This document shows positions 12,622-57,038 of a stretch of 57,038 bases of DNA, one piece after another. The stretch comes from a virus (Duplodnaviria; Caudoviricetes): positions 1 to 57,038 of the IMG/VR virus record IMGVR_UViG_3300021197_000748. The stretch is one strand, 5' to 3'. The translations under genes were made by a program, and so were the position numbers. The notes beneath the pieces are model-generated. The model made no database searches and was not told the origin of the DNA. It worked only from the letters and a program-made list of their open reading frames with translations. Numbering within the stretch: position 1 is the stretch's first letter; each line of letters starts with the position of its first letter.

Positions 12622-12773
12622 TGAGAAGTTCCGACGCTGCTGCCCTGGTATAATTGAAGGTTATACGTTAGGCTGCGGCACTGAATTAGGCGTAACATTT
12701 GGCGTTCGCACCACCATCCACGATTTGTGGGATACATTCTAATTACAGCTGCATCTGCAGCAGACGGTCCTAA
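12622..12773 (-). ncRNA. Candidate structured ncRNA (multi-branch)
   Basis: Manual pairing: closing stem CTGCTGC/GCAGCAG, long stem GCAGCTGTAATTAG/CTAATTCAGTGC enclosing hairpins CCAC-AAATC-GTGG and TGGTG-CGAA-CGCCA, and stem GTATAA/TTATAC. Confidence 0.45.
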
Positions 12774-12781
12774 GGTTCAAA

Positions 12782-15124: not shown

Positions 15125-15137
15125 ATAGCTCTCCTAC

Positions 15138-17930
15138 TTAGCTGTAGTTAGACCAGCCGCTGATGTCACCTGGGTCTTGCGAAAGACCCACGACAACCAG
15201 GGTATCACCAGCGGTCGGAACCGTGCCGCCCAGAGTATACTGCTGAATCTGACCGGAGTCGGTCTGCCACGCATGCGTAGTCCACACACCAGTAGTAGCA
15301 TTCCAGACAGCGATGTACGGGACATCTGTCTCGTAGGCTGCGGTTACAGTCCCACTAAGATCTCGAACCTGAACCGCACTAGTAACTCGTAGTTGTGAAA
15401 TATCAAAGAGCTGACCGGTAGGAGTCATAGTCACTCCAGTTACCCAAGTACTGCCGTTGGAGACGATCGAACTCGTCTCGGCAATGGCGTAGGTATCCCA
15501 GTCATCGGCCACGCCCGGAGGAGCCATCTTAAAGCTAAACAGAGAGATACCTCGTCCGTTAACCAAACCAGAAGGCGCAAACCAACCGAAGTTGTTCCCG
15601 TGATCGGTCACAAGACTGCCGTCAAAACTTTGGTCACAGAACTGAGTTCCTGTATCATCATCGCCAACCCAGCCTTCCAGCGTGTAGTCCACCCCGTCGT
15701 AAGTAAGACGAAGGAACATGTGAGCTTCGGGATTCGCGGCAAGATCGCCGGGGAACATATCGAAAGTCTGATTGCTTTCTGAATTATTAGTATACATCGT
15801 AATAGCGGATGTATTAGTACCGGCCTTAGGGGCAATACCAATCACCGTATAATCACCGTCGGCTCGATCTCCACCATTGATAATAAAACCAAAGACTGCG
15901 CCAAGAGACGACTGCGCACCACGGGCAGCCTTACCTTCCATTACCCAGCCACCAGACGGGGGCGTGCCCAAGTCCGTGACAAAGGAGTCTTGCCATGTGG
16001 CATCGCCGATAACACTCTTAGAGATGTGTGTATCTAAATACCAACCATTACTGCTTGAGGAAGACTGCAGAGCCCACGTAGGTCCGCTAGTGTCCTGTAC
16101 GCCGTAGTTCTCAAAGACACGCCCACCGGATACCCCAAAATCGGTAGTAGTACTATTGTCAATAACCCCTGAGGCAGTCGCCATCGAAGTAAAATCGATA
16201 TCAAAGTACGGAACCTCAGGAGCTGGTTCAGGCCGCGAGGCAATAGCACCGGTCGAGAGATCAATTACATACTGATGGAACTCAGCAGCGGTTACTACCG
16301 TGCCTTCCCCGTCGGTCATAGACCCTACGGGATCTCCACCGGCTCCAACAATCAGACCAGCCTTGTGCATATCATACAGCACCTGCTTAAGAGTAAGCCA
16401 GTTAATATCCATAAAGGGCTGAACCTCTGTCTGATTGCCCCAACGTACGGTACAATGTACCTCGGTATCCGAACCAAACTGATCAGCACTTCCCGTTACA
16501 GCGGGGTTACCAATAGTAGCAGACGTAGCATTATCGCTAGCATCAGCATTAAACACCGTGAGATTCTTTTGGATGTTGAGAGCATTACCATTAGAGTCAA
16601 GTCCACTGTAGCCAATCACCGTACCGAACAAACCAAGACAGGCGCTAGTGGTATAGATACCCGCGTTGTCTCCTTTGTACATTTCAGTGGTAGCATTAAA
16701 ACCGGCCATAGGGATAGACTCAACCATGGGGCTAAACCCTAGTCCCGTGAAAACATTCGTCAAACGAGCGCTGCCCGGACGGGCGGCAATAGCGTTCTGA
16801 CCCGTACCTTCACGTACCATACCCTCGGAATTAAACCAAAGCCTTGCTCCGGTATCGAGGCCAATTTCATTAAAGCCCATGGAATACAGCCCAGCCGCCT
16901 CAACATCCCACCAGCCCTCAAACTTTTCGTTAGAGCTCGAGATGCCGGGGTTATTAGCATCAACGTAATCAAAACCAGGCTGGGGGTTATAAGAAGGATT
17001 ATTTCCACCTGCGTCCGGATCCCAGCCGTCGATATCACTAGGCGAAGACGTTCCGAGAAACGTGCGATCGTAGGTTGCCATATCGTTATTAGTATAATTA
17101 GGTCGATACCCGGAGTAAGATTGAATCTTGGGTGGTCCCGGTGCTGGGCCAACTCTAGCAGCAATGCGATCTTTAATCGCCGTGATTGCTGTAGTCCAAG
17201 CAGCTTCGGAGTCACCAATAGTACCATCTATGCCGTTAGGCGTGAAGGGGCTAGTAGTAGTTCCAGTACTAAAGTTACCAACCCAGGGCGCTGTGGACTG
17301 CGACAGACTACTATAGGGATTAGCTGGATATTCAGGGGCATAACCCCCGCTTCCGTTGTTCTGGTTGATGTAGCCAGCTGGGTTCCAGATTCCAACCCTG
17401 TCAAACCCAGCATCAATCGCCGGGTAGATCTTATTTTCTGTCCAAAGCAATCGCCCATTGGTTTGTGAATCAGTCATATCATTACCCGCTGCAGGGGTTT
17501 TACGATATTGCGTTTGGGGAACACCCCACGCTTCACCGTCTGAAACTCCGCCAGGGGCATTATTTGTAGCCGGGCCGTCAGTGCTTGTGGAAGTAGCAAA
17601 TCCAGAAACAAGCATTGGTCGTCGATCGGCCTGGAAAGTGATGCCAACGAACTCCACGTTAGTTCCCGACCAGGACGTAATGTCCGCGGGAGTGGTAAAG
17701 CCCGCATCGGAGTAAGCCTCGATGTCGTAGAGCTTACCCTGCTCCATCGAATCGTAATCAGTGATAGGATTCTCGGAGTCTCCGGTCTCGAAGACCTTGA
17801 GGTAAAGAGCACCGCCGGAAGCCGTGGTGAACGTAGCCATAAAAGCTGGGTCTTGACCCGCAGTTGCGGCGGTCAAGGTGAACGTCACGTTCTCGCCCGC
17901 AGGCGTAGTAAATGTAAGTGAATTAGCCAT
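15138..17930 (-). CDS. Large receptor-binding/glycan-active protein, 930 aa
   Basis: Gly/Thr/Asp/Trp-rich; possible TIM-barrel segment (AGFDRVGIWNPAG, GFNEIGLD, MVESIP), lectin-like beta region and C-terminal Trp-rich module; cassette RBS. Confidence 0.55.
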   Translation of the reverse strand: MANSLTFTTPAGENVTFTLTAATAGQDPAFMATFTTASGGALYLKVFETGDSENPITDYDSMEQGKLYDIEAYSDAGFTTPADITSWSGTNVEFVGITFQADRRPMLVSGFATSTSTDGPATNNAPGGVSDGEAWGVPQTQYRKTPAAGNDMTDSQTNGRLLWTENKIYPAIDAGFDRVGIWNPAGYINQNNGSGGYAPEYPANPYSSLSQSTAPWVGNFSTGTTTSPFTPNGIDGTIGDSEAAWTTAITAIKDRIAARVGPAPGPPKIQSYSGYRPNYTNNDMATYDRTFLGTSSPSDIDGWDPDAGGNNPSYNPQPGFDYVDANNPGISSSNEKFEGWWDVEAAGLYSMGFNEIGLDTGARLWFNSEGMVREGTGQNAIAARPGSARLTNVFTGLGFSPMVESIPMAGFNATTEMYKGDNAGIYTTSACLGLFGTVIGYSGLDSNGNALNIQKNLTVFNADASDNATSATIGNPAVTGSADQFGSDTEVHCTVRWGNQTEVQPFMDINWLTLKQVLYDMHKAGLIVGAGGDPVGSMTDGEGTVVTAAEFHQYVIDLSTGAIASRPEPAPEVPYFDIDFTSMATASGVIDNSTTTDFGVSGGRVFENYGVQDTSGPTWALQSSSSSNGWYLDTHISKSVIGDATWQDSFVTDLGTPPSGGWVMEGKAARGAQSSLGAVFGFIINGGDRADGDYTVIGIAPKAGTNTSAITMYTNNSESNQTFDMFPGDLAANPEAHMFLRLTYDGVDYTLEGWVGDDDTGTQFCDQSFDGSLVTDHGNNFGWFAPSGLVNGRGISLFSFKMAPPGVADDWDTYAIAETSSIVSNGSTWVTGVTMTPTGQLFDISQLRVTSAVQVRDLSGTVTAAYETDVPYIAVWNATTGVWTTHAWQTDSGQIQQYTLGGTVPTAGDTLVVVGLSQDPGDISGWSNYS

Positions 17931-17990
17931 TCGGCTCTCCTTGTAAAAGTTAAGTAAAGTCCCTGCTGCCCCGCTAAGAGCAGCAAGGGA
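17926..17990 (-). repeat. Intergenic cassette copy 1 (hairpin + U-rich spacer + AAGGAGAG RBS)
   Basis: Minus: TCCCTTGCTGCTC-TTAGCG-GGGCAGCAGGGA CTTTACTTAACTTTTACAAGGAGAGCCGAATGGC. Confidence 0.85.
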
Positions 17991-18001
17991 AGTGTTGGTT
18001 A

Positions 18002-20029
18002 TCAGCTAGGGGGAGTATTGTCTCCACCCCAGGCAGTGCTGTACGAAGTTGCTCTTGGCAGCGTCTGAGGAATGTGCGTATCAGTCCAATCGACCGTGAT
18101 GTTTTCCAGCTCGGCCTGAGTAGGAATACTTGACCAACGTACACCAATAGAACCTCCATCGGCTGCTGCCGTCGTGGCAACGCCCTGAGTGGTAAGAGTC
18201 AACCGATCAAATACATCCGAAGTTGTATTAAAGAACGGAAGGTCGGTAGAACCCCAAGAGGTAGTGCCGATTGCACTCCCGTTGATAGGAAGGAACAAGT
18301 TTGCAAATCGCTTAGAAGGTCCACCGAGACCGTTGTCGCTCTCAAAAGCAGTCATCATTCGACCAGCTACGTTTGACTCCAAGGTAAGCGAGGAGTTTAT
18401 AAGGTTGCTCATAATCGCACTAAATGATGTTGAGATACTGCCCGTAAGAATAGTATCATCAGCAAACAGAGTGTTATGTCGGAACTCCACTAGCTGAGAG
18501 GCGTTAAGCACCGTGTCCACACCGCCGTTAAATGCAAGAACTGTCTGACCGTTTAGAACCTCATTGTTAGGCTGTACGGTTGCGTTAGTTACGATAAGGT
18601 TATTATTAAACTTCATCGAACCTGTAGTCGTATGAGGATCACTATTGTAAGGCTGAAAGGACATAGCCCGTGCGCAGTTGAAGAAGATGCAGTTCTCGAC
18701 CGTGGCGTTAATCCAGGAATCTTGGTACAGAGAGATACCCTGACCGTGACCTGTGGTTGGAAGACTGAAGTAACATCCGCTAATAAGTGAGGGCTCGATA
18801 ACGGTCGTCCCGACCTGGTCACCCATATTACTAATAGCCGATTTATTCTCCATGCCTCTAAACGTACTGTTTACAATACGACATCCGGGTCCTGTGATAA
18901 TAGCCGAGGATTCCAGCCGATAAAAGGTACATCGCTCTACGTCGTTAGCCGTTCCATAGCACGCATACTTACCAAAGCTAAAGCTGCAGTTCTTAAGGGT
19001 ACTCTTACGAGTGCCGTCAGTACGAGCCGACAGCAGACTGGCGTTGTAGGTTCCCTGAGAGCCTCCGATGAAGGTAGTCCCGTAAAACTGAATGTCCGCC
19101 AGACCGCCACTAGAGACCTCAAAGATATGAGGCCGAAGCGGCATTGCGGCAGACTGCGGTACCCCATTAACGGGGTTGTAGTAAATCTTCCCGTTATTGA
19201 TATCGATAGAGTACTCACCGGGCGCTAGATCCTGACCACCATACATGCAGAAGGACAGGTAGCCATTATAAGTAATACCAAAGTCCTCCGCAAAGGTCAT
19301 AACACCGGTGTTTGAATCCCAGGCTGTAGGTATCCTGAACGCAGTCACGTTAGGTCCAGCGTGGATGTTAATACCAACGGAAGAAATACCTACCGCATTT
19401 ACGCGGGCAGTGATCTCATTTCTAAGGGTCGGGTCTGTCACAGTAAATCCGGTGATTAGCTCGCCCTGCGCGTCGTCTCCGCCATCCGTTTGGGCAGTAC
19501 CGTTGTTGATCCCGTTAGACGTCGAGTTGACCTTAAGCCAGTTGCTGTTCACGGAAAATCGATTATTTCCATAACCAGAAGGGACTGCCGGGTAAACCTT
19601 CAATGCTGGAGCATCGTCTTGGTCGGCATCTACTAGATAGTTTCTCATGTCGTCGAGCCAACTCAGGTTAATATCCGAGCTATATACCCCGCCGCCTAGA
19701 TCTGTCCAAGAGGACAAAGCCTTTGCTGCGGTGAGGTATCCTCCAACCACGATCAGATCCTTATTATTGTTAGTTGGAAATGGATCGGTATTGTCTTCAG
19801 GCTCGAAGCCTTGTCCACGAAGATCCAGGGATCCCCCGTCGGGCGTAGCGTCTAGAAGTGTCTGCAAGCTAGACCACGTTCCCATAGTTGCGGGTCGCGC
19901 TTCGCCGACACCGTTCGGTCCAGTCCCTTGGTCAGGGATACCACCTTGGATCTGCACGCTATCGTTCTCAGTCGCAGCCTCAATAGACCAGACGAGATCG
20001 GAGGTAGTAAATCGATTTCTATAAGCCAT
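18002..20029 (-). CDS. Right-handed beta-helix glycanase-like tailspike, 675 aa
   Basis: N-terminus MAYRNRFTTSD; WTDLGGGVY and PGEYSIDINNGKIYYNP motifs of beta-helix glycosidases; repeated NCxF/RCTF rungs; HGQGISL. Confidence 0.65.
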   Translation of the reverse strand: MAYRNRFTTSDLVWSIEAATENDSVQIQGGIPDQGTGPNGVGEARPATMGTWSSLQTLLDATPDGGSLDLRGQGFEPEDNTDPFPTNNNKDLIVVGGYLTAAKALSSWTDLGGGVYSSDINLSWLDDMRNYLVDADQDDAPALKVYPAVPSGYGNNRFSVNSNWLKVNSTSNGINNGTAQTDGGDDAQGELITGFTVTDPTLRNEITARVNAVGISSVGINIHAGPNVTAFRIPTAWDSNTGVMTFAEDFGITYNGYLSFCMYGGQDLAPGEYSIDINNGKIYYNPVNGVPQSAAMPLRPHIFEVSSGGLADIQFYGTTFIGGSQGTYNASLLSARTDGTRKSTLKNCSFSFGKYACYGTANDVERCTFYRLESSAIITGPGCRIVNSTFRGMENKSAISNMGDQVGTTVIEPSLISGCYFSLPTTGHGQGISLYQDSWINATVENCIFFNCARAMSFQPYNSDPHTTTGSMKFNNNLIVTNATVQPNNEVLNGQTVLAFNGGVDTVLNASQLVEFRHNTLFADDTILTGSISTSFSAIMSNLINSSLTLESNVAGRMMTAFESDNGLGGPSKRFANLFLPINGSAIGTTSWGSTDLPFFNTTSDVFDRLTLTTQGVATTAAADGGSIGVRWSSIPTQAELENITVDWTDTHIPQTLPRATSYSTAWGGDNTPPS

Positions 20030-20088
20030 GTGGCTCTCCTTGTAAAGTTAAGTAAAGTCCCCGCCTCTCCGGTAAGAGAAGCGAGGGA
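20025..20088 (-). repeat. Intergenic cassette copy 2
   Basis: Minus: TCCCTCGCTTCTC-TTACCG-GAGAGGCGGGGA CTTTACTTAACTTTACAAGGAGAGCCACATGGC. Confidence 0.85.
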
Positions 20089-20092
20089 AGGG

Positions 20093-23000
20093 TTAAGATG
20101 ATTTAATAAGACCGAAGGGAATAGCCTCTGTAACACCGTCTGCCGTAAGAAAGCAAGTCAAGGACTTACCCACGTCCTCAGCCTGAACAGTATAGCTAGA
20201 GGCTGTACTTACCACCGTACTTCCAAGCATCCACTTGTAAGATCTCGGGGCAGCATCGTTTTCTAGTAGTTCTCCTTCATACTCAAGAGCAACTACGTCA
20301 GTAGGAACCTTTCGAGTTGCGTTATTTGATGCAGGGGGAATACGAAAGCGATTAAAGGGAAGCAATGTGGTAATGGTTTCATTGCCAGTGCTTCCCGTTT
20401 CAATTGCATCAATAGGATGAGGCAACGAGTTGGCAGTTCGAGGGTTACCCTTAATATCATAAGGAAGAACCGAACCGAGATCCAGAGTAACTGGGTCGCT
20501 TACAAGTGATGTATGCAGCAGTCCTCCGTCTTCGATAGCCCCATACTTAGAAACGCCCCATTCCTTATTACCTGAATTAGAAACGTAGTTAGCCACCATA
20601 GTATTACTAGCGGCGGGGACTACGTTAGGGTTACCGAGCCAGGTCGTACTAAAAGTACCAACTGTACCCAGAGCCGAGTCCTTGAACTGAACGTCAAAAG
20701 CGCCAGGAGGGCTGGAGCTGTTTGAAGTACCATCAGTCTGCGAAATCGAGGAGCCTTCAATATGGAGATGGATATCCTCCGCATCTGCTTCTCGCGTTCC
20801 TGTACTCATGTTCACCCAGTTATCCATGTTTGTTCCCTTGATACCAAGCCGCATAGGAGCTGGCTTCTCAATCTTGAAGAGAGTATCAGCCCTGACATCC
20901 TTAGGATCCAAGAACAAAGCATTAGAGAAGACGCAGTCCGAAACTGCGCCGCTCGCTTGGAACAGGAACTGCTGTTCCATGACTGAAGTGTAGTCGTGAA
21001 ATAGCGTATTGTTCATTGTGGCGGGTGAGTTGGATGTTTGTACCCCATCCTGGTGAGCCCAGAATATTGGGCAGACTCGATCGCCTGCTTGCATATCCAT
21101 GGTAAGGATGTTGTCAATAAACGCTTGAGCGAGAAGACCGTTGGCAGGGGTGTCCGTCACTGGGTTTAAACCACCCGAGCTATAGTACGCCGCGACAGTA
21201 TCTGTGTTAATATCAAGACCTTCGGCGGCAAACAATGGAGCACCGTCTGGGTTGTCATACCGAGCAGGGCTGTACATTCGCATGTATGGTAGGGCCGGAT
21301 CGAGCGGGTCGACGCCTTCTCCAATAGGAAAGGACGGCCTGCTGTTAGACCAAGACATTAGGGCCTTTCCGTTGCCATCAATAACTCGGTTACCAACAGT
21401 AGCGGGGTATGGGTTTCTTCCCCAGTCAGCATCGTCAACATACGTAAGACAGGCCGAAGATGAGACATACGACTTGGCAGCAAACGTCCTGCCAGCTGGG
21501 GTCAGAGGCTGACCGCTCTTCCACACAAAGAAATCAAAGTCGTAAAAGCGAGTACCGGCGGTGCAGTCGCCGTAAGTGCCGTCAATGTCTGAGCTCTGCT
21601 TATATCTAGCAGGCCATGTCGTAGGGGGCGTAACAAGATATGCGCGCCACTCTAGGATGTTCTTACCAGCATTAATTACATCAGTATCAGTAGCGTAAAA
21701 CGTACCGTCCTCAGCTACCCACGTAATCCGACTGATTTCGCAAGTACCGCGCGCGATGCTATCGTTACCAACGGAGTCAGCATAGTCGTAATAGTACTTA
21801 CCATTTACATCAATTCCTCCAGTACTGAGACCAAAGCCGTTCGATACATAGCGTTCGGTATCGAGGTCAGTCCCTGAGGCATTAGGCCCATAGGAGGTAA
21901 TGTGTCGGAAGTTGTTTACGCCAGCCTCAGCTGCGGTCGTTAGGAAGTAAAGCGTATCCCACCAAATAGCACCATCGCAATTAAAGATGGAGCTTGGGCC
22001 GCCGCAGACGATTGTATTGATGAAGGTATTATAGAGTCCTACATTAAGACGAGCGTTAGCATCCGAGCCTCTAAACAACGTCTGCTCGTATGGGTTCTTA
22101 GTGGAGGCTCCTGGGTCATCCGCCTGGTCTGACCTAATAGCCGGGTTCTGGCGTCCAGTAGGCGACTTGCCATAACTCATGCTCGAATCTTTAATAGTAC
22201 ATTCATTAAAGACCAGAGGAATAAAACCCTCAGATCCAAGAGTAAAGGCCAAATTGTTATACATATCAAGCGTGATATTTTCAAACAGAATAGGATCCCC
22301 GTTACGCAGAGAACAAGTAGTCCACGTAGGATCAAAACTGTCTGCATCCTCCTCGGTAGTACCTGGGAAGTCACTCGATAAGATAATAGTCACATCATTC
22401 TTGTCCCCCGTCGACGACCTAATTCTCCGGTAACCCGCAGTAAGAGGATCCGTTGAGTCTAGAGCAGGGAAGGTAGAAACACTTTGAATCGTATATAGCC
22501 CAGGGGTAAGAACAAAATCAATCGCCTTATACTGGGTACTGTTATCTTGGTTGTACCTACAGATGTTCGAGTGAAGGTTAGGTGAGTACAAGGTACCATC
22601 AGGCTCCACATAGTCAATTCTTGTGTTCTTAGTTAGGTCAAGGTCTGCAGCGTTAAGATTAACCGTGTGAATCTTCGTAGCATCTTCCATGACTCGAATC
22701 GTCCGTGAGACAACACGAGCAGGAATAACCGATGGGGATCGTGGGATAGCCTCGGCGTACAGAGTACGATCTTCGTAGTCCGTAGGGGCTGTATTAGAGT
22801 TGTCAATGCGAACCCAGTATCCCTGTACCTTTGTTCCATCGGGCATAATGCGCTGAGTAATCTCAGTGACAGTTTGTGCCGAAGAACCACCGTAGTAGAA
22901 GTTTACCTGTTCAATGCCAGTAGAGTCGTAAGTATCCGCAGAAGCGCAGGCATACAGTGCATCGTCGTCTGCCACGTAGAATGTTTCAGCAAGGAACAGA

Positions 23001-23170
23001 TGTACAATCGTAGCTTGCTCATCTTCAGTAAGCGTAGGGGAAGACTTAGTATAGTTAGCATCCCCATTCCAGACTACAGCGCTTACAGGCGCTGAGACAC
23101 CAATAGTCTCTCCATTGGCACTTACCTGCCAAAACGTATCTGTAATAGTAAATCTATTTTTATTAGCCAT
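20093..23170 (-). CDS. Tailspike/depolymerase-like protein, 1025 aa
   Basis: N-terminus MANKNRFTITD; TGIEQVNFY Ig-like domain; LTPGLY and FENITLD beta-helix start; HQDGVQ; C-terminal Ig module YKW...SYTVQAEDVGKSLTC. Confidence 0.65.
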   Translation of the reverse strand: MANKNRFTITDTFWQVSANGETIGVSAPVSAVVWNGDANYTKSSPTLTEDEQATIVHLFLAETFYVADDDALYACASADTYDSTGIEQVNFYYGGSSAQTVTEITQRIMPDGTKVQGYWVRIDNSNTAPTDYEDRTLYAEAIPRSPSVIPARVVSRTIRVMEDATKIHTVNLNAADLDLTKNTRIDYVEPDGTLYSPNLHSNICRYNQDNSTQYKAIDFVLTPGLYTIQSVSTFPALDSTDPLTAGYRRIRSSTGDKNDVTIILSSDFPGTTEEDADSFDPTWTTCSLRNGDPILFENITLDMYNNLAFTLGSEGFIPLVFNECTIKDSSMSYGKSPTGRQNPAIRSDQADDPGASTKNPYEQTLFRGSDANARLNVGLYNTFINTIVCGGPSSIFNCDGAIWWDTLYFLTTAAEAGVNNFRHITSYGPNASGTDLDTERYVSNGFGLSTGGIDVNGKYYYDYADSVGNDSIARGTCEISRITWVAEDGTFYATDTDVINAGKNILEWRAYLVTPPTTWPARYKQSSDIDGTYGDCTAGTRFYDFDFFVWKSGQPLTPAGRTFAAKSYVSSSACLTYVDDADWGRNPYPATVGNRVIDGNGKALMSWSNSRPSFPIGEGVDPLDPALPYMRMYSPARYDNPDGAPLFAAEGLDINTDTVAAYYSSGGLNPVTDTPANGLLAQAFIDNILTMDMQAGDRVCPIFWAHQDGVQTSNSPATMNNTLFHDYTSVMEQQFLFQASGAVSDCVFSNALFLDPKDVRADTLFKIEKPAPMRLGIKGTNMDNWVNMSTGTREADAEDIHLHIEGSSISQTDGTSNSSSPPGAFDVQFKDSALGTVGTFSTTWLGNPNVVPAASNTMVANYVSNSGNKEWGVSKYGAIEDGGLLHTSLVSDPVTLDLGSVLPYDIKGNPRTANSLPHPIDAIETGSTGNETITTLLPFNRFRIPPASNNATRKVPTDVVALEYEGELLENDAAPRSYKWMLGSTVVSTASSYTVQAEDVGKSLTCFLTADGVTEAIPFGLIKSS

Positions 23171-23227
23171 GTGGCTCTCCTTGTAAAGTTAAGTAAAAGC
23201 TCCGCCTCCCCGGTAGGGGAGACGAAG
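23166..23227 (-). repeat. Intergenic cassette copy 3
   Basis: Minus: CTTCGTCTCCC-CTACCG-GGGAGGCGGAG CTTTTACTTAACTTTACAAGGAGAGCCACATGGC; 33 bp identical to copy 2 (23165-23197 vs 20024-20056). Confidence 0.85.
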
Positions 23228-23239
23228 ATTAGAGGTTAA

Positions 23240-26200
23240 TTACGGGAATAGTACTGTGGGCTCAGTCCATCCATCGGTACCACCGTTGCCGGTAGCTCCG
23301 GTGTAGTCAGACAAATATACAACACCAATACTGTAGACGTCGGAGTTGTTCCAGAGACCGCCGTTAGTTCCGTCAGAGCCGCCCGTAGGCCACGCATGCG
23401 GGACCCAGTTGCTGTGGCCGTTTGCACCAGGATTCTCGTCGACCTTCGGTCCGAAGACGTACCAGCCTGCGTTATCTGCATGTCCAAACGCACCAGCTGC
23501 AGCTTCTTCAGCCGTGATGTAGATGCCCATGTATTCAGGCATCTTGTCTCGGTTAGCTGAGGTCGCGAAATAGCTTCTGGTGTTGTTCGTGTATCCGCTG
23601 AAGGTGTTCAATGCTACTTCGGTGTTTGCATCCAGAGGGAAGTTAGCGTCAAAGGTAGGGTTCAACTGACCGCTGCCATATCCGGGAGCCGTACCAGCAC
23701 CGAGCTGATACGTATCCCAGTCATCAGCCGAAGAAGGAGAAACAAAGTCCTCCCAGACACTAACGTCACCGTCGTACTGCGTAAGAGCAATGACACCCAT
23801 GTCGTTTACTACATAAGAACCTGACGACGGGAAGGAATATCCATCGACAAGTACATAGCGATTGCCAGAGCTGGTTACACCATTCCACTCAAGGATAGAC
23901 CATCCAAGCCCGTCAACCCAAGTTGCAAGGTATGCAGGGTATTGACTTGGATCGTTTGGCGGCCAGTTACCACCGTTGACACGAAGTCTCAAGTTTCCAC
24001 TCGAACTGTCTACCTGAGTAATCTCGAAGTAGGTTGTTGGCGCGGTTGTGGTAACCATAGTCGAAGAAGTGGAAGGCGGAGTACCATAATACTCACCATC
24101 TGCGTAAGTAGTGTAATCTACCGGAGGAACATTACTATATAGCAGGTTATTTAGATTGTACGTATTCCAAGAAGGAATCACCGTAGATACTGCATCAATA
24201 GCAATTGTCTCGTCATCAAACTCCTGACCGTTGGTAACAAGTCCGCTAGAGAACTGGACCGTAGACTGAGCAACACCAGGCTGAATAGCTCCGGTGTCCT
24301 TGTCCATGTCTTCACCAAACCACCAGAACGAATTCTTCCGAGTAAAGCTATAGGTATCGCTATCGTCCTTAGAACTATTCCTTGCAGACGGCGTAGTAAC
24401 GCTATCAATATGAACATTATGCGTCACAAGATCCAAAGCCGCTGGCGTCGAAGGTGGAACATATCCAGGAGCCAAAGCTGCTGGGTCGTTTAGGTCACTC
24501 GACCAAGAGCCTGCGGTAAAGCCGTACTGTCCCAGAATAGTGTTATTAATCACAATATCCTTAAAGACGCAATCAAAGACGCGGCAAGGTCTGTCACCAC
24601 CAGCAACATCAATGACGTTATTATTAGAAATAAACACACCCTGTGATGCGTTCAGGCCCTGATAATCTTCCGTTCCCAGGTATCGGTAGATAACACCGTT
24701 ACCTAGTACCGCTATCTGGATCTGCGTGAAGTCCTTATGGACATCGTGGAGAGGGTCACTCTCCGGGATAGCGCCAAAGTCAAAGTCTGAGGCACTATTA
24801 GAAATATCATTTGCGTTAGGAACACAAACCACTGAGAGATCAACGCCCTGCGGCTTGCCCGTAGAGGCATCTACGGTATATGACGTCTCGGCATAGAACG
24901 AATTCAATACACCATTGTTGTAATCCTGAAGAATTTGCTGATCACTTGCCTTGTTAAAGTAAGCGATGGACCCAATGGGCCACACAAACTCAGCAACATT
25001 CTTAACCGTAGCGTTAACACACAGGCCACGGGCATTCATACAATCACGAGTAAGACCATTCTCAACCGTGCAGTTTACGGACTCGTTAATAGAAAGTCCC
25101 CAGTCGGCCCATTCTGCTGTGCAGTTAAACATACAAAGAGCTGCACCACCGCCCGCAGAGTTATCAGAGGGAACAAACGTACCCAAAGCACTCTGACCAT
25201 TTACAGGCGTCGTGTTAGGGTCCATAAAGTGAGCGGCAGCAGCCGCTGCGTTATCGTCAGTAATATAACCAGTTCGACAATTTTCAATCTGGAAATAGCT
25301 ACTGTAGTTAGGATCCTTCATTTGCCAGAGGTAACTAGGGTCGGTAGTTTCTGTGGTAATCGTAAGATTATCAAAGATCGTACCCGTAATTTTTCCGGTG
25401 GCTCCTGAGGTACCAGTCGATTGGATAGTCTGATCCTGAGTAGTACCAATTAGCTTGCCGGGAAGAATTACATCACTGCCGGAATAACCACGCGGCCATA
25501 CTCCAACTGATCCGTTAGTAGAATCAGCGGGGTACTGAGGAAGACCATCCGGGGCACTACCTCCGAGAAGATACCTAGTACCCGCGAATGAGGTACCCAT
25601 GAGATAAACCTTCATGTTACGGAAGTATAGCTCCCCACTTGCCCCGACGATGCTGAACATCGTCTCCTTAGGTGTAGATGAACTAAGCCCATCATTGGCA
25701 TCACTTCCATTGACCGGATCTAAGTAGTATTGCTTAGTCCAGCGGCACAGGTTCACACCTCGGTTATTGAATTCTTCCGCGTGAGCTACCAATTCTGCGG
25801 TAGTAGGTGTACCCTCTATTCGGCCGTTGTTTGATTCAAACTCTGGCCCTTGAAGAATACGAGTCTTTCCAAGTGTCGGGTAAACAACGGCTCGAACCTC
25901 AAAGCCCCGCGAATCAGTCGTAATATCTGTGGGGTTAAAGGGGCACACGTAGACTTCGTTGCCTTCAGCATCAATAGTAGTTGATGTCACTGAATAGGCG
26001 GGACCATCGTTAATATAGAAATCAACGCGCTCAACGCCATTTCGAGTATACGTGTTGTTTTCGGTGTCAATCGCTGAAACACCACCAGCGTAAGCAAAGA
26101 CGCTTACAGAGCTTTCGTTTTCTACGTCAGTAAACAAAGGACTAATAAAGCGAGCAATCACTCGCTCGTCGTACATACGTTCATTAGGATCGGATCCCTG

Positions 26201-27673
26201 CTGTTCAGTAATAGTACCACCGTCGCCGGTAAAGGCGAGGGGAGTCCAGTCTGCAGGCGCGGTAGATCCCACCTCAGCAAGGATAGTAGGACCAACCCAC
26301 GTAACCGTAGCATCAATCAGTACACCCTTATCAGTATAAGCATAAGCATACAGCTGAGTATTCGCCGGGGGATTATTGGTCACCTCAGTACCTGAAGGAC
26401 CGATGCCCGTAAAGAGCCTAATCTCAGCAACATCTGCGGACGGAGGAGGCTCAACAATAATGACCGGAGGTGCAGCGTCTTGAGTGCTCTGGTAAAGCTG
26501 ACCATTGAACGCCTGAATAGCAGTGACCTCGCAGGTATAAGTACCCGGATCACCGTTGAAGTTATAGAAGGCATCTGCGTTGTTCTGAACCGTAGCATTA
26601 TTCTTCATAAACTCATTTTGATAGATCAAGCTACCGCCCTGACCGGTTCCGGTGGACTGGAAGCTAGCGTCAAACGTAGGAGTAACCTGAATGGTCTGTC
26701 CCACAGTGGATTCAAACAATCCCGGATCGCTAGTCCACGTCCAGATCTGTCCAATAACGCCGGTAGCTTCGGAGCTAGTGATCCCGGTGGAAGTGCTATC
26801 GAGATAGAAGAGCTCGACTTCACAGCGAAGCCGAAGACCTGCGTAGCTTTCGGGAGGGGTATACGAGCTAGAAGAACCAGTCTGCCGCTCAGTCCAGTTA
26901 AGACCGCCATCAGAGCTAGTCGACCACGTATACACCGTATTGACGGGGATACGAGAATCAAGACCATCAACGGTGAAGTCAGCTTCGTACGCAACACCAA
27001 CCAAGGGTGTCTGCTTAGGGAAGCTGAGGTTTTCGTTGGTCAGTGCCGGGATAACCTCGGCGGGCAAGCTGATCGCATTCGGCAAAGGCTTATCAGTACG
27101 AACCTCAAAGCTGTAGCTAGTATCGTACCGCGCCGGGACCACAATGGTCTGCAGCGGATCGGCAAGCAGAAGCTGTTCCGTAACATTCCCAACAACAAGT
27201 AGGTCTTGCTGCATCGAGTTCGTGGTACCAGCCCACAGATCCTTGTTAAAGTTACGAAGTGTACCGATGAACTCACCGTTCTGGATCTTCTGAGACATGA
27301 GGTTATCCCCATCCTCGTCGATCTGCCCGAGGCCATCCTGCACCAGTTCGCTGATCATAAACTCGAGGCCGTCCTGCGTAGCACCCGCGTGGATAAAGCA
27401 TCCAACGAGAGCACCAAGAGCGGTGGCCTGCGAGGGGAAACGACCGACAAGATTATACTGATTGATAATCAAGGTCCAGTCGTCTCCGGCATCGTTCGCG
27501 ATAACAGAGAACGAGTTCACAGCGCGGAGGTCACCTCGATGAGAAGCGATACCCGCAGTGGAAAGCTCCACCGGATATTCCGATGTTGCGTTTACAATAA
27601 GGTTGTCGGTACCGTCAAGAAGGTAGTTACCTGCACCATCCTTGAGGTATTGAAATACTAAGAGTCTGTCCAT
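23240..27673 (-). CDS. Multidomain receptor-binding/depolymerase-like protein, about 1477 aa
   Basis: Likely start MDRLLVFQ after AAGGAG; Ig modules; YDERVIARF...NGVERVDF domain; YYLDPVNGSDANDG beta-helix cap; HKDFTQ; two C-terminal Trp-rich modules. Confidence 0.7.
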   Translation of the reverse strand: MDRLLVFQYLKDGAGNYLLDGTDNLIVNATSEYPVELSTAGIASHRGDLRAVNSFSVIANDAGDDWTLIINQYNLVGRFPSQATALGALVGCFIHAGATQDGLEFMISELVQDGLGQIDEDGDNLMSQKIQNGEFIGTLRNFNKDLWAGTTNSMQQDLLVVGNVTEQLLLADPLQTIVVPARYDTSYSFEVRTDKPLPNAISLPAEVIPALTNENLSFPKQTPLVGVAYEADFTVDGLDSRIPVNTVYTWSTSSDGGLNWTERQTGSSSSYTPPESYAGLRLRCEVELFYLDSTSTGITSSEATGVIGQIWTWTSDPGLFESTVGQTIQVTPTFDASFQSTGTGQGGSLIYQNEFMKNNATVQNNADAFYNFNGDPGTYTCEVTAIQAFNGQLYQSTQDAAPPVIIVEPPPSADVAEIRLFTGIGPSGTEVTNNPPANTQLYAYAYTDKGVLIDATVTWVGPTILAEVGSTAPADWTPLAFTGDGGTITEQQGSDPNERMYDERVIARFISPLFTDVENESSVSVFAYAGGVSAIDTENNTYTRNGVERVDFYINDGPAYSVTSTTIDAEGNEVYVCPFNPTDITTDSRGFEVRAVVYPTLGKTRILQGPEFESNNGRIEGTPTTAELVAHAEEFNNRGVNLCRWTKQYYLDPVNGSDANDGLSSSTPKETMFSIVGASGELYFRNMKVYLMGTSFAGTRYLLGGSAPDGLPQYPADSTNGSVGVWPRGYSGSDVILPGKLIGTTQDQTIQSTGTSGATGKITGTIFDNLTITTETTDPSYLWQMKDPNYSSYFQIENCRTGYITDDNAAAAAAHFMDPNTTPVNGQSALGTFVPSDNSAGGGAALCMFNCTAEWADWGLSINESVNCTVENGLTRDCMNARGLCVNATVKNVAEFVWPIGSIAYFNKASDQQILQDYNNGVLNSFYAETSYTVDASTGKPQGVDLSVVCVPNANDISNSASDFDFGAIPESDPLHDVHKDFTQIQIAVLGNGVIYRYLGTEDYQGLNASQGVFISNNNVIDVAGGDRPCRVFDCVFKDIVINNTILGQYGFTAGSWSSDLNDPAALAPGYVPPSTPAALDLVTHNVHIDSVTTPSARNSSKDDSDTYSFTRKNSFWWFGEDMDKDTGAIQPGVAQSTVQFSSGLVTNGQEFDDETIAIDAVSTVIPSWNTYNLNNLLYSNVPPVDYTTYADGEYYGTPPSTSSTMVTTTAPTTYFEITQVDSSSGNLRLRVNGGNWPPNDPSQYPAYLATWVDGLGWSILEWNGVTSSGNRYVLVDGYSFPSSGSYVVNDMGVIALTQYDGDVSVWEDFVSPSSADDWDTYQLGAGTAPGYGSGQLNPTFDANFPLDANTEVALNTFSGYTNNTRSYFATSANRDKMPEYMGIYITAEEAAAGAFGHADNAGWYVFGPKVDENPGANGHSNWVPHAWPTGGSDGTNGGLWNNSDVYSIGVVYLSDYTGATGNGGTDGWTEPTVLFP

Positions 27674-27697
27674 TATGGATCTCCTTGTAGAATTAAT

Positions 27698-27736
27698 AAA
27701 GTAAAAGACCCTCACCCCATCTCTGGGATGAGGGCC
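27698..27736 (-). terminator. Terminator-like hairpin (diverged cassette copy)
   Basis: Minus GGCCCTCATCCCA-GAGA-TGGGGTGAGGGTC then TTTTACTTT...TACAAGGAG. Confidence 0.75.
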
Positions 27737-27761
27737 GGTCGTCAGCTCGTGCTGAGAAGTG

Positions 27762-28325
27762 TCATCGGGGGAACTTGAGGAGATACTCCTGAAGATCCTG
27801 CGTGATGGTCGCGGTGAACGCCTCGTCCCCAGGAGGGATAGAGCCGGTACCGGCCATGAGCAGTAGAGCTTCGAGGCAACCCTCGACGGACCCTGCAGTA
27901 GCCATGTTGAGCGCGTTACCGTAGGCAACGAGCGAGGCAGCACGACCAGCAGCGTCCTGGTCCTTAGCGTAGAAGTACGAGATCGCACCTCGCCGCACGT
28001 CGGTCAAGATACCCTCGTCACGAAGCATCATAGGCTTCACGATCGAGATAACCTGATCAGGAGTCATAGACGAGTAGTTGTTAAAGAGGTGTGAGAGCAC
28101 CGCGTCAGCTGCTTCGTCGTCCGTGAGGTTAGCAACGACCGCAAGAGGACCGTAGTCCGTAGCATCGTTGCCCGTAAGATTCGGTCGATGATCCTTAACC
28201 ATAGTCCATCGAACGTTACCGTTCATGCTATCGGTCGTGTCATGAATGATATAAAGCGCGGGATCGGTGATACCGGCGTCGAGATTCTGAATCATCTTAT
28301 ATGTATGTTCTTCAAACAATGCCAT
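27762..28325 (-). CDS. Hypothetical tail-region protein, 187 aa (possible adaptor or chaperone)
   Basis: TGATG-coupled to the upstream fibre gene; globular sequence with no recognised motif. Confidence 0.6.
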   Translation of the reverse strand: MALFEEHTYKMIQNLDAGITDPALYIIHDTTDSMNGNVRWTMVKDHRPNLTGNDATDYGPLAVVANLTDDEAADAVLSHLFNNYSSMTPDQVISIVKPMMLRDEGILTDVRRGAISYFYAKDQDAAGRAASLVAYGNALNMATAGSVEGCLEALLLMAGTGSIPPGDEAFTATITQDLQEYLLKFPR

Positions 28326-53449: not shown

Positions 53450-55975
53450 TCAACCGAATAGGTACTCGGATTCGAGGACTCCTCGGATGTCGAGGGTGCC
53501 GCGCTGTGAGTGTGAATGGGCGGGGTGCTCGGCAGGGAGTTGTTCTCCCATGATGACTTCGGCACGGTCCTGAAGTCTCGCGAGCTGGTCGATTTCGTGA
53601 ATCGCATAGAAGGTTTCCTTGATAGAGTCGCGCATCATGGGCACGTAAGGTGCCATGACGCCGTAGGAATCATGAATCATAGAGAAGAACTCGATGCCCT
53701 TAGAAGCAAGGTCATCCACACAGAGGCTCATGTGAGCCGCATCGAGCGAGTGAACGAAGTTGGGCGGCATGGCCGAAGCCGCTGCCTTGGTATCGTGGCC
53801 GTCAACGTAGTATTGGAACCGCAGATCGAACTGCTTGTTCCATATTGTAACGGTGTTGCGCGAGACAACACTAGGCACATACTTGTTGATAACCTTGAAA
53901 CCACTCGGCGTAACCCACGAGAGCGGGGTATCACCGAGCCAACCTGCGAGCAAGGTAACAAACTCCTTGCCATGAGCACAGTGTGCCATCTGCACGGCCT
54001 TTGCCTTACAGATGAGCTTGCCCATCTCAGTACCGGCCGTACGTCGGCTTCCAGCATCAACCCAGTTCATATGCCCTTCGCTGAGCACGTACTTGGTGAC
54101 GCTGTGGTCTGAGATACCATATGGGTCGCACATGACGGATCGCTTGCAGACCTTACGAGGAATGCCGCCGTCCCAGTGCTCGAGAAACTTGATGCGCCAC
54201 GGATTAGGATCATCCGCACACATCTCAGTACAACCATCTGCCACAAGTTGGTAGACATCAGCCGGCTTGGGAGACGGAGTGAGGTTAACCTCGGGGCCAA
54301 CCTTCTCGTCCCGCGTGAGCGCTGCCCAATGCTGGACACCGTTGCACGCACCATCGAGCTGGACAGGAACTTGCGATCTGCCAGTATCGATAGCCATGAT
54401 AAGATCGAAGATCGCTGCCAACCGTTGGAAGGAAGCGTTCTTCTTGGGCGAGTCGTCTTCCCACACATCGGTAGTACCATGTGGGTCAGCGACCACTGCT
54501 CGCCAGTCATCCATGTGATCGTCAACATACTTGACACGATCATCGAACGACACCTTGTCCACACCCATGAGGTTGGCGAGGTTGACCTTGATCCAGTAGA
54601 TGTCCTTAGGTTGGACACTAACTGGCTCGGCTGCCATCAGCAGAGCTTTATCAAGATCGCCACCTTGCGGGTGCAGCAGGTATGAGTCGCTGTAGTAGCG
54701 ACCACGGAAGTCACAGAAGTAAGCGTGCCACAAGGTAAACGACCTGAGCTTGTTGGCTTCCTTGGAGCGGATAATCATCTGCAGGCGCGATGCCTGACCT
54801 TTCGACCATTCACCCCAGCGTACTGCCTTTTCCGCCATCCATGCGGACTTCTCTTGACCATCACCGTCTTCGGGGTAGGGCGGCATCTCTTCGAGTACCG
54901 ACGAATCATAGGCGGGGATAGTGCCGGTTTGGCGGCCGGCTTTCCAAAGGTCATCCATAACCTCGAGCACACGAGCGTTAACTCGCCACTCGCTACGTTG
55001 CAGGGTGTTGATAACTCGACGTGTCTGATCGGACATGCACGAGGGATCAACATCCTGTTCAGTGAACATCTCGTCAGTAGCACGAGCCTTCACCTGAGCG
55101 GTCTTCCGCATCTTGCGGATTGACCAGTCCATCAACCCACCTGCTTCGCCGGGGATGTGATCGACAGGGCGACACACCATTGGCAGACGGTTGGGCAGCA
55201 GCTGAACCATGTACTCGTCGATACGAGTCATTAGATGCTGTACGAGCTCGGGAGCTGGCATGACATACAGTGATACCTTGCGGTTGCGCTTAGTACCCTT
55301 TGCGGTTCGCTTTTCAAGCTCGTCCTTGGACATTTGCTCTTGGATCGGCTCGACCGTAACGAGGTTTGCTTCTCGCGCGAGCCGGAAGATACCATGAGCA
55401 AAAGTGTCCTTCTGCTTTGCAGAAAGCTTAGGAAGGGAATTAACCTTTTCGGCGAAACCATTACGCCGCTTGTTATTCCACTGCTTGAAGAATCTGCTCT
55501 GTTTTCTATACCACTCATACTCTTCTTCCTTAGCCGCCAAGAAGCGGCAAACATCCCAGCAGTTCTCAACAAAACTCCGGCATACCTGCTGTACCTTAGG
55601 AAGCGCCCACGTGTTAGACAGTGGATCATTATCCTTGAATATAGCGCTGGAATAGGTTGATTCCATTAGAGAACGTACGAAGATATATGAGATACGGTCA
55701 GGGCCGAGGTTCCATAGCATATAAGTCCACTGAGGCAAACGGTGCTTAGTGCTATCGCCCTCGCGTTCCTTCATCATCTCTTCAAGAGCGGTATGAAGCC
55801 ACTTAGAAAAGTAGCCGGACCACTCATCGACAACATCGTTGAAAGGCTGTAGATGATCGGTTGGTGTCTCTCTAGTCTTATCCATGATGTCCTGCTTCCA
55901 CTGCTCTTCACGAGCGAGCTGGAGGTTACGCAGCTTGTGTTGTTCTTGCGAACTCATTTTATCCCATTGGTACAT
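53450..55975 (-). CDS. Single-subunit DNA-directed RNA polymerase (T7 gp1-like)
   Basis: PMVCRPVD, DFRGRYY, QLDGACNGVQH, RKVCKRSVMCDPYG, WVTPSGF, PPNFVHSLDA, IHDSYG, SEYLFG; start MYQWD after AAGGAG. Confidence 0.98.
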   Translation of the reverse strand: MYQWDKMSSQEQHKLRNLQLAREEQWKQDIMDKTRETPTDHLQPFNDVVDEWSGYFSKWLHTALEEMMKEREGDSTKHRLPQWTYMLWNLGPDRISYIFVRSLMESTYSSAIFKDNDPLSNTWALPKVQQVCRSFVENCWDVCRFLAAKEEEYEWYRKQSRFFKQWNNKRRNGFAEKVNSLPKLSAKQKDTFAHGIFRLAREANLVTVEPIQEQMSKDELEKRTAKGTKRNRKVSLYVMPAPELVQHLMTRIDEYMVQLLPNRLPMVCRPVDHIPGEAGGLMDWSIRKMRKTAQVKARATDEMFTEQDVDPSCMSDQTRRVINTLQRSEWRVNARVLEVMDDLWKAGRQTGTIPAYDSSVLEEMPPYPEDGDGQEKSAWMAEKAVRWGEWSKGQASRLQMIIRSKEANKLRSFTLWHAYFCDFRGRYYSDSYLLHPQGGDLDKALLMAAEPVSVQPKDIYWIKVNLANLMGVDKVSFDDRVKYVDDHMDDWRAVVADPHGTTDVWEDDSPKKNASFQRLAAIFDLIMAIDTGRSQVPVQLDGACNGVQHWAALTRDEKVGPEVNLTPSPKPADVYQLVADGCTEMCADDPNPWRIKFLEHWDGGIPRKVCKRSVMCDPYGISDHSVTKYVLSEGHMNWVDAGSRRTAGTEMGKLICKAKAVQMAHCAHGKEFVTLLAGWLGDTPLSWVTPSGFKVINKYVPSVVSRNTVTIWNKQFDLRFQYYVDGHDTKAAASAMPPNFVHSLDAAHMSLCVDDLASKGIEFFSMIHDSYGVMAPYVPMMRDSIKETFYAIHEIDQLARLQDRAEVIMGEQLPAEHPAHSHSQRGTLDIRGVLESEYLFG

Positions 55976-56001
55976 GTAGTCTCCTTGTAGCAACAATGAT
56001 A

Positions 56002-56026
56002 TTCTCTTATTACTTCCAGTTGAGAG
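56002..56026 (-). promoter_or_regulatory. Putative phage RNAP promoter, copy 1
   Basis: Minus CTCTCAACTGGAAGTAATAAGAGAA, directly upstream of the RNAP RBS. Confidence 0.65.
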
Positions 56027-56027
56027 A

Positions 56028-56303
56028 TCAGCCTGCCTCCCATGGGTGGATAAAGGTACTGAGCGTCGAGCCATTCCACTTAGGTGGGTTGGCTTTGTTG
56101 CTCGGAGCGCCAGTAAGCTCGAGGAACGACGTCAGCACCTGCTGAGCTCGATCCTTGAACTGAGCCTCACGTCCGCGCAGCCGCAGCGTCACCGAGACGC
56201 CGTTGCCGCTCGTCGCAAACTTGGTGGCCTGCTTGGCCTTTCGCTCCATGTCACGGTCGTCAATACGAGCTGACAGCTGTACATTCTTAGTCTTCGTCTT
56301 CAT
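56028..56303 (-). CDS. infC: Translation initiation factor IF3 C-terminal domain protein
   Basis: KNVQLSARIDDRDMERKAKQATKFATSGNGVSVTLRLRGRE...PKWNGSTLSTFIHP follows the IF3-C pattern (KExxxxxxIxxxDxxxKxxxxxxFLxxGxxVKVxxRFRGRE...PxxEG..xxxxLxP). Confidence 0.88.
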   Translation of the reverse strand: MKTKTKNVQLSARIDDRDMERKAKQATKFATSGNGVSVTLRLRGREAQFKDRAQQVLTSFLELTGAPSNKANPPKWNGSTLSTFIHPWEAG

Positions 56304-56538
56304 CATCATCTCCGTTGAGGTCATCGATCAACTTACGGATCTGCTCTTCGTCGAGATTCTCGAGCATGTCCTGCATGAGGTTGTCATGCCAGTTAGGATC
56401 TTTCTGGTCAAGCACTGCTACGATAGCAGTTAGTGCCGTGTCTTCCTCGAGTGACGTAGTGTCAGTACCGAGAGACTGGAGCATAGCTACAGAGTCATAG
56501 AGATCAAACCAGATATCACCGATTGCGCTTCGAGTCAT
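56287..56538 (-). CDS. Small acidic hypothetical early protein
   Basis: GGAGG RBS; very Asp/Glu-rich; overlaps both neighbours. Confidence 0.65.
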   Translation of the reverse strand: MTRSAIGDIWFDLYDSVAMLQSLGTDTTSLEEDTALTAIVAVLDQKDPNWHDNLMQDMLENLDEEQIRKLIDDLNGDDDEDED

Positions 56539-56908
56539 TCATTGCCTCCTGTATGTGGCGTAGGAAGGTGGAGTCAACGTGCTCCACCATGTAATCATTG
56601 GTCAGCCCGCCTTCTTGCGAGCCTGCATTCTTGATCGAGTGGTAGTAAAAGGCTACCTCGAGCATCGTGTGGGCAATAATCTTCTTGCCACTCATTACCA
56701 CGACCAGCATGAGATCGTCGTCTGACATCTCCTTGCCGGTCATCTCGTATGCCGCTTGCATAGGAGCGGGGATACGCTTGCGGTACTCTTTAACCTCGAG
56801 CTTAGCGCCAAGCAACTTGAACTTGTCAATGTTACTCTTGAGGCAGCGCTCGTAACTGTTGGCCAGTGTACCGCCGAACTTATGGATACGCTTGTTCTTT
56901 TTCTTCAC
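56516..56908 (-). CDS. Hypothetical early protein
   Basis: Probable GTG start at 56908 after GGAG (MKKKNKRIHKFGG...). Confidence 0.65.
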   Translation of the reverse strand: MKKKNKRIHKFGGTLANSYERCLKSNIDKFKLLGAKLEVKEYRKRIPAPMQAAYEMTGKEMSDDDLMLVVVMSGKKIIAHTMLEVAFYYHSIKNAGSQEGGLTNDYMVEHVDSTFLRHIQEAMNDSKRNR

Positions 56909-56909
56909 G

Positions 56910-57038
56910 TTAGCTCCATGCGTTAGGATCCTCATCGCCGGGATCGTGGCCGGAAGGTGTGAGTGTAACTGAGCGGTTAAGCTCGGCCAGCTGCTCACGG
57001 ATCCGCTCGAGTAGCGCAGCACAGTGCTCGCTGATAGG
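56910..57038 (-). CDS. 3' end of a hypothetical gene (partial)
   Basis: Open frame ...PISEHCAALLERIREQLAELNRSVTLTPSGHDPGDEDPNAWS* ending just before the next start. Confidence 0.5.
   Translation of the reverse strand, partial: PISEHCAALLERIREQLAELNRSVTLTPSGHDPGDEDPNAWS

Follow-up and report, generated by a model that had tools for sequence, protein, structure and literature searches.

The hallmarks of a cellular IF3 gene are its infC context and an atypical AUU start codon that serves autoregulation. With respect to the protein, the account in PMC9723500 places the C-terminal domain (CTD) near h44, h24 and h45, where it clashes with H69 of the 50S subunit, and states that anti-association activity resides in the CTD, which alone sustains growth of E. 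coli. The same source credits the N-terminal domain (NTD) with added fidelity and with helping to evict the CTD, and describes the isolated CTD as less efficient than whole IF3, P-site eviction being dependent on the NTD (PMC9723500). [quoted passage not shown]

Phage-encoded translation factors have so far been regarded chiefly as belonging to very large phages. In T7, the gene directly ahead of that for the polymerase (gene 1) is gene 0.7. As described in PMC6375957, the early kinase of T7 phosphorylates IF1, IF2 and IF3; for jumbo phages, IF3 is mentioned in PMC7824862 and presumed there to support phage translation. When we screened an isolate collection, 7 of the 50,697 records matched IF3. 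Four of these are jumbo-phage records of 349–490 kb with the annotation IF-3, representing three phages (Atu_ph07 is filed twice), and the IF3 gene of the Vibrio jumbo phage encodes 173 aa and sits beside S21- and L7/L12-like genes; for IF3, the presumption that phage translation factors come mostly from large phages is thus borne out by the isolates. The other three matches are unverified faecal contigs; two of them, the ‘Bacteriophage sp.’ entries H3 and H4, were rejected as stand-alone C-domains, both being full-length two-domain frames. The viral fold library BFVD gave only two matches at E ≤ 0.001, both of 172–173 aa. Our literature search returned no description of a stand-alone phage IF3 C-domain, although one may be mentioned in supplementary gene tables or subscription journals.

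Here we report that an uncultured, mid-sized, T7-like marine phage encodes a complete IF3 C-terminal domain as a separate gene. The window, by which we mean the whole 57,038-bp stretch that was analysed, had been proposed in a preliminary description to carry a 91-aa, RLRGRE-containing ORF that starts with ATG and represents IF3-C without the N-domain. That reading holds in each of its parts, and we can add that the gene lies on the minus strand, for which no strand had been given, and has its own Shine–Dalgarno (SD) sequence (Table 1). The protein matches Pfam PF00707 (IF3_C) with 62.9 bits (E 2.8e-17; profile positions 2–85 of 86), well over the gathering cut-off of 34.8 bits, and a six-frame search of the contig agrees with the protein search at 62.3 bits. 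Profiles of whole IF3 align with the C-terminal half only: TIGR00168, the equivalog for entire infC, scores 45.4 bits against a cut-off of 60 and covers positions 83–167 of 170, and the 168-position phage IF3 profile phrog_9787 scores 42.3 bits over positions 82–163, short of a full-length match. IF3_N has no match at E ≤ 1 in the six frames of the contig, and by profile search it is likewise absent from the complete relative G001 and from G002. By comparison, all 10 control genomes above the IF3_C cut-off were also above that of IF3_N. The protein thus departs from the layout of a bona fide IF3, in which IF3_N and a Lys-rich linker precede IF3_C, and the gene from the cellular pattern of infC context and AUU start, as it begins with ATG and has phage early genes and a phage RNA polymerase as neighbours.

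The predicted fold is likewise that of an IF3 C-domain. An AlphaFold2 model of the 91-aa protein (mean pLDDT 91; 70-row alignment) has the elements E5–10, H16–31, E35–41, H44–64, E75–77 and E80–85, that is, the beta-alpha-beta-alpha-beta-beta order of the two-layer fold in solved IF3-C structures. In a Foldseek search of the PDB with this model, ranks 1–21 were all bacterial or mitochondrial IF3 C-domains (TMq 0.67–0.86), including 1TIG with a TMq of 0.78 and an rmsd of 2.2 for the predicted query.

The frame is also open from an in-frame ATG at 56324, which would yield 98 aa. We favour the 91-aa form because GGAG is positioned 6 nt before ATG 56303, because the closest relative, L001, lacks an earlier ATG, and because independent gene calls are 91–94 aa. 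Among the aligned loci L001–L008, an equivalent of the SD (GGAG, GGAGG or GAGG) occurs in L002, L003/L004, L005/L006 and L007, and none of these three is present at the corresponding place in L001 or L008. Two antisense ORFs on the plus strand (56046–56273 and 56203–56433) were rejected, given that the minus strand carries every long gene of the contig and that the sequence variants are synonymous in the minus-strand frame.

Table 1. Features of the IF3-C locus and its surroundings (positions are those of the window).
Feature	Coordinates	Strand	Details
T7-type single-subunit RNA polymerase, 841 aa	53450..55975	minus	Pfam RNA_pol 242 bits; phrog_414 468 bits
Spacer, 52 nt	55976..56027	minus	IF3-C stop to polymerase start; holds the polymerase AAGGAG at 55986–55981
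IF3-C gene, stand-alone	56028..56303	minus	ATG 56303–56301, TGA 56030–56028; 91 aa with TLRLRGRE
Acidic 83-aa protein gene	56287..56538	minus	ORF; pI 4.05, Asp/Glu tail; last 17 nt overlap the IF3-C start
Shine–Dalgarno-like GGAG	56310..56313	minus	6 nt 5′ of IF3-C ATG 56303; read from the sequence
Basic protein gene, ~139 aa	56516..56935	minus	ATG 56935 picked by homology; frame open to 57022

Profile alignment to the E. coli chain allows residue numbers to be converted for residues 4–60, the E. coli number being the phage number plus 88. Retained in the window protein are D18, K22, K24, K28, R41, R43, G44, R45 and E46, where D18 corresponds to D106, K22 to K110, K24 to R112, K28 to R116, R41 to R129 and R43-G44-R45-E46 to R131–E134. 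PMC3401457 presents D106 as universally conserved and connects it, like K110, with ribosome interaction; R112 is linked there with binding of the 30S and dissociation of the subunits, and R131 with contacting mRNA and discriminating between start codons. D18 and K22 are found in 18/18 phage rows of our alignment and are nearly invariant in the 106 other rows; a basic residue (K or R) occupies position 24 in 13 of the 18 phage rows and position 28 in 16. The RGRE segment is mostly retained in the phage clade, with PRY replacing RGR in three rows, namely the sequence shared by L005 and P0006 (counted twice) and L008. Residues most conserved over all IF3 C-domains (K6, D18, K22, F29, G33, G44, R45, F60) are retained as well. 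Two residues mark the clade, R21 and W76, both present in 18/18 phage rows and in 0/106 others. Conversely, the clade has mostly lost a basic residue of the last hairpin, next after the conserved Gly: R or K stands there in 72/106 other rows and in only 1/18 phage rows, the latter counted by reading the sequences because the automatic tally for the clade covers the five commonest residues only; the window protein is among those that lack it. We take this lost residue to be the equivalent of E. coli R168, which belongs to a group of arginines with a suggested part in 30S binding. The proteins are strongly basic throughout, with a pI of about 10 (9.6–11.0 in all 14 phage proteins measured).

The genome that carries this gene is linear, has no terminal repeat in the present record and is 85% complete by CheckV estimate; all of its long genes are on the minus strand. 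Its content is that of a T7-like podovirus, with a single-subunit RNA polymerase, a gp2.5-like SSB, endonuclease, primase-helicase, DNA polymerase, exonuclease, ribonucleotide reductase, portal, scaffold, capsid, tail tube proteins and terminase. No close isolated phage was found, identities being at most ~29% for the polymerase, at most ~41% for the primase-helicase and ~25% for the capsid. The contig is present in sequencing runs labelled seawater or marine metagenome from several studies, and among the runs containing the region there is no RNA run. An SD-like motif, often AAGGAG, precedes 27/35 genes against a background of 18%, and ATG is the start in 32/35 by first-start calls. Pfam and PHROG searches identified no hibernation-related or other translation gene among the contig genes searched.

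Certain features elsewhere in the contig deserve mention in their own right. A T7_gp14-like internal virion protein (7832–8590) and two giant ORFs without a Pfam match (4398–7820, 1140 aa; 3–4307, at least 1435 aa and running off the contig) come after the terminase (8594–10300, minus), an unusual order for a T7-like phage. Three consecutive ORFs of 930, 675 and 1025 aa at 15138–23170 (minus) each follow a nearly identical 22-nt AAGGAG leader, and this may be an expression signal repeated in front of a group of genes for the tail or for host recognition; none has a family match, 15138–17930 and 20093–23170 having been searched in Pfam only and 18002–20029 in PHROGs only. G+C is 0.47–0.52 at 12000–28000 and 0.54–0.60 elsewhere in the contig, which could mark a module of different origin.

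Immediately around the IF3-C gene, the order is a basic ORF of ~120–139 aa, an acidic ORF of 74–95 aa, IF3-C and the polymerase. It had been suggested that the gene lies directly upstream of the polymerase; this is correct, the gene being in the early block and separated from the polymerase by the short spacer listed in Table 1 once the polymerase start is placed at ATG 55975. The longer polymerase frame originally listed (53450–56074), which would overlap IF3-C, was rejected in favour of this ATG, which has AAGGAG before it and opens the conserved MYQWDK. The latter is the polymerase start in L001–L008 and L028 (MYQWTT in L027), and AAGGAG is conserved along with it in eight metagenome loci. 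Overlap of the acidic ORF with the IF3-C start suggests that the two are probably translationally coupled, and in L001, L002, L003, L005, L007, L008 and L028 homologues of the acidic ORF likewise adjoin the IF3-C start or run into it; none was found in L027, where IF3-C persists. The acidic protein has no Pfam match above cut-off and no PHROG match, and complex prediction with IF3-C returned a score of 0.00 and no verdict. Its basic neighbour is conserved within the cassette ahead of the polymerase, with tblastn matches in 10/10 related loci; it has no Pfam or PHROG match and no usable Atlas match, and its AlphaFold2 model (pLDDT 74) gave no PDB fold match at E ≤ 0.001. Scanning of 55300–57038 detected no sigma-70-like promoter, the contig ending 0.7 kb upstream of the gene, and only two terminator-like sites, a number expected by chance and both on the non-coding strand. 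At the contig end, a partial ORF (56910–57038, minus, running off the contig) terminates in HDPGDEDxxAW, a motif shared with small early ORFs of L027 and L028.

Throughout the phage lineage the IF3-C gene is a conserved core feature, and purifying selection acts on it. A protein search restricted to near-length sequences gave 4 clusters among 5 candidates, all of 91–94 aa and all PF00707. Of 316 pattern matches in a metagenome scan with IF3-C, 13 were confirmed as loci. Eight of these loci (L001–L008) have short frames of 86–91 aa that amount to six distinct sequences (L003 = L004, L005 = L006); L009–L012 are ordinary two-domain IF3 and L013 is cut by the contig end. In 8/8 short-frame loci, the gene follows a homologue of the basic ORF and directly precedes a polymerase with 46–83% identity to that of the window. 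Since these eight had been found through IF3-C itself, viral contigs were also searched with a polymerase alignment, by which two loci (L027 and L028) were confirmed among 11 pattern matches; in both, the polymerase is directly preceded by an IF3-C gene (82 and 88 aa). Viral-contig scans with the IF3-C protein, with its alignments or with a single RNA polymerase protein confirmed no locus. Taken together, the position is the same in 10/10 related metagenomic or viral loci, with homologues of 82–94 aa, and one of the polymerase-found records, 57,266 bp long with direct terminal repeats, is a genome rated 100% complete in which there is exactly one IF3_C match and no IF3_N.

The frame is intact in 11/11 lineage members seen, at identities of 37–96%, and Nei–Gojobori dN/dS is 0.086–0.476 in 8 of 21 pairs, the other 13 being saturated at synonymous sites. 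When contigs of four other marine runs were compared over 55900–56600, nine differences fell inside the gene, 8/9 of them synonymous and the single nonsynonymous one changing residue 90, in the tail, while all four indels fell at 55988–56017 within the 52-nt spacer and none in the gene. Because these are assembled contigs of mixed strains, we regard the variants as supporting evidence only.

The early regions of the related loci contain genes of separate interest. L027 encodes at 337–2517 proteins with a dATP/dGTP diphosphohydrolase N-domain and with a 5-hmdU DNA kinase helical domain, as well as one thymidylate-synthase-like protein, a set that suggests thymidine hypermodification of phage DNA and has no equivalent in the present part of the window. 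L028 (626–3055), as well as L002, L003, L005 and L008, carry ThyX, a DUF4406 protein and a conserved 168–172-aa protein with an N-terminal match to Pyr_excise (pyrimidine dimer glycosylase), all just upstream of the basic–acidic–IF3-C cassette.

With respect to other IF3, a HMMER scan of 1.84 billion representatives gave 536 matches at E ≤ 0.001, of which the best four are 88–93 aa; the best full-length match, P0009 (180 aa), has 41% identity (E 7.9e-10). A C-domain tree was computed from 124 rows, comprising 112 of 154 library proteins (those with at least 70 profile positions; 42 were dropped), nine phage loci, two cellular loci and one jumbo-phage IF3 (Vibrio phage). All 18 stand-alone phage sequences fall into a single clade with SH-aLRT support of 95, or 93 after the addition of five Patescibacteria sequences, and this clade sits on a long stem apart from cellular IF3 and from the jumbo-phage sequence. 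Phylogeny had been put forward as a possible indicator of the host, but no donor or host can be named from the tree, because support for the sister group is only 67 and an 85-aa domain cannot settle the matter. Ten two-domain IF3 of Patescibacteria-type MAGs (L014–L023), retrieved by scanning genome contigs with the clade alignment, were rejected as donor or host as they do not group with the phage clade. They do share with it the helix-1 motif D-L-L-R-K-A-R-Q-A-A, probably by convergence, and have KGRYKY instead of RGRE. Six short, cellular-looking proteins (P0008, P0038, P0072, P0076, P0119 and P0125) keep the cellular EGR-type hairpin and were not counted as stand-alone, as fragmentation or a wrongly called start of ordinary infC may account for them.

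What, then, might a phage gain from half of an initiation factor? Our preferred, though still tentative, proposal is that the protein acts early at the IF3-C site of the host 30S subunit, adding anti-association and checkpoint activity outside infC autoregulation and so favouring phage mRNAs with AUG and a strong SD. Gene order suggests that it would be expressed early, along with the other pre-polymerase genes, and its own ATG and SD would put it beyond the host infC feedback. Binding at h24/h44/h45 on the subunit interface would be through the conserved helix-1 surface and the RxRGRE loop. Such binding would raise IF3-C activity in the cell, keeping 30S apart from 50S and available for initiation, and would thereby enlarge the pool of initiation-ready 30S subunits. 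At the same time, the kinetic checkpoint for start sites could be strengthened; phage messages, mostly AUG with a strong SD, would pass it easily, while weak, non-canonical or leaderless host starts would be placed at a disadvantage. In favour of this proposal are the profile and fold identity, the retained functional residues, the conserved position and purifying selection, the published abilities of the CTD and of raised IF3, the canonical phage starts and, as a precedent, the T7 kinase. Several observations weigh against it. No sigma-70-like promoter was detected in 55300–57038, and three phage rows have PRY where RGR is expected. Identity to the best full-length (~180 aa) cellular IF3 match does not exceed 41%. 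As CTD eviction is NTD-dependent and the isolated CTD less efficient, an excess could slow initiation rather than help it. Moreover, the long stem, the fixation of R21 and W76 and the loss of the basic hairpin residue mean that the binding mode or the target could have shifted. A bolder form of the idea, which we put forward as rather doubtful, is that an N-domain-less IF3, made early and in excess, loads 30S subunits with a checkpoint lacking tRNA-coupled release, such that only phage messages with AUG and a strong SD reach 70S efficiently and leaderless or weak-start host messages are shut out. If true, host shut-off would operate at the level of start-site selection, by means of a borrowed half of a host factor.

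Other roles can be envisaged for an IF3 C-domain in this position. In slow-growing marine hosts, its main task may be to release ribosomes that are idle or in hibernation, displacing HPF-type factors, competing with RMF and holding the split subunits apart, so that ribosomes are made ready for the flood of mRNA from the phage polymerase. The contig's occurrence in seawater and marine runs of several studies and the placement of the gene ahead of the polymerase fit this picture, as do descriptions of IF3 releasing HPF from E. coli ribosomes and of RMF competing with IF3 for post-recycling ribosomes (PMC8778775) and the assignment of anti-association activity to the CTD (PMC9723500). We nevertheless consider it unlikely: the contig genes searched include no hibernation-related or other translation gene, and the idea differs from our preferred proposal only in which ribosome pool matters most, a point on which no computed result separates the two. 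The opposite effect on fidelity, in which the protein occupies the IF3-C site without an N-domain, displaces full-length IF3 and thus lowers fidelity or shuts off initiation, permitting starts that are otherwise rejected, would suit a protein devoid of N-domain and linker, and E. coli living on the CTD alone (infC delta-55) is described as slow-growing with compromised fidelity (PMC9723500). Yet phage starts are canonical (32/35 ATG, 27/35 with SD) and reveal no visible need for relaxed fidelity, and displacement would require a large excess if the isolated CTD is less efficient than whole IF3, as PMC9723500 has it; for these reasons competition with host IF3 appears quite unlikely.

Alternatively, a domain captured long ago may have been re-purposed and now bind phage RNA, the polymerase, the acidic neighbour or a host defence or sensor protein. 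The long stem, the clade-specific R21 and W76, the lost hairpin arginine and the conserved cassette with basic and acidic proteins, the gene for the latter overlapping the IF3-C start, are all compatible with a new partner. On the other hand, the residues that the phage protein retains are those most conserved over IF3 C-domains, L027 has IF3-C and no acidic gene, and the neighbours offer no fold or family clue linking them to IF3-C, which together make re-purposing distinctly unlikely in our judgement. As for a role in defence, to which the preliminary description had alluded, nothing in the analysis points to one. Finally, the sole sign that the gene might be a decaying, functionless remnant of a chance-acquired host infC fragment is that it equals half of a cellular gene. 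This explanation is highly improbable in view of a frame kept intact in every one of the 11 lineage members over a wide range of identities, dN/dS well under 1, the gene's own SD and ATG, and the single phage clade (SH-aLRT 95 and 93).

Phage-borne translation factors and IF3-C itself are already known; what is new, as far as our literature search goes, is a single-domain IF3 among the core early genes of a T7-like lineage of medium genome size. The retention of one factor domain as a conserved core early gene throughout a T7-like marine lineage with genomes of ~57 kb implies that altering initiation brings a strong and specific benefit. This domain also offers a natural experiment on why the IF3 N-domain is conserved if, as PMC9723500 describes, the C-domain does most of the work, since here the C-domain has been kept alone and tuned by evolution, R21 and W76 becoming fixed and the hairpin Arg being lost. 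The effect of the protein on SD-led, leaderless and non-AUG initiation could reveal a new viral bias of host translation.

Set against known systems, the phage protein most resembles the C-domain of bacterial IF3, both in fold (TMq 0.78–0.86 to 1TIG of B. stearothermophilus, 30S-bound 5LMN of T. thermophilus and 9A5A) and in its equivalents of D106, K110 and the RxRGRE loop. In the E. coli infC delta-55 strain, the CTD alone is described as functional (PMC9723500). Unlike cellular IF3, the phage gene is naturally without N-domain or linker, starts with ATG and has no thrS-infC-rpmI-rplT context, and its clade differs further in the fixed R21 and W76 and the missing hairpin Arg. IF3 homologues are likewise phage-encoded in Vibrio phage 2.275.O, Agrobacterium phage Atu_ph07 and Sinorhizobium phage Phosso; however, those are two-domain proteins of about 170 aa from genomes of 349–490 kb, one of them beside ribosomal-protein-like genes, whereas here a 91-aa single domain is borne by a T7-like genome of ~57 kb. 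Virus-encoded ribosomal proteins such as bS21 (PMC6375957) are likewise small phage-borne parts of the core translation machinery and are presumed to bias initiation, but bS21 belongs to a different protein family and is a ribosomal constituent, while IF3 is a dissociable factor. Comparable in strategy, if our preferred proposal is right, would be the gp0.7 kinase of T7, an early product of a T7-type phage aimed at the host initiation machinery; the two have no sequence or fold relation, and where the kinase modifies host factors, the phage described here supplies a factor domain of its own.
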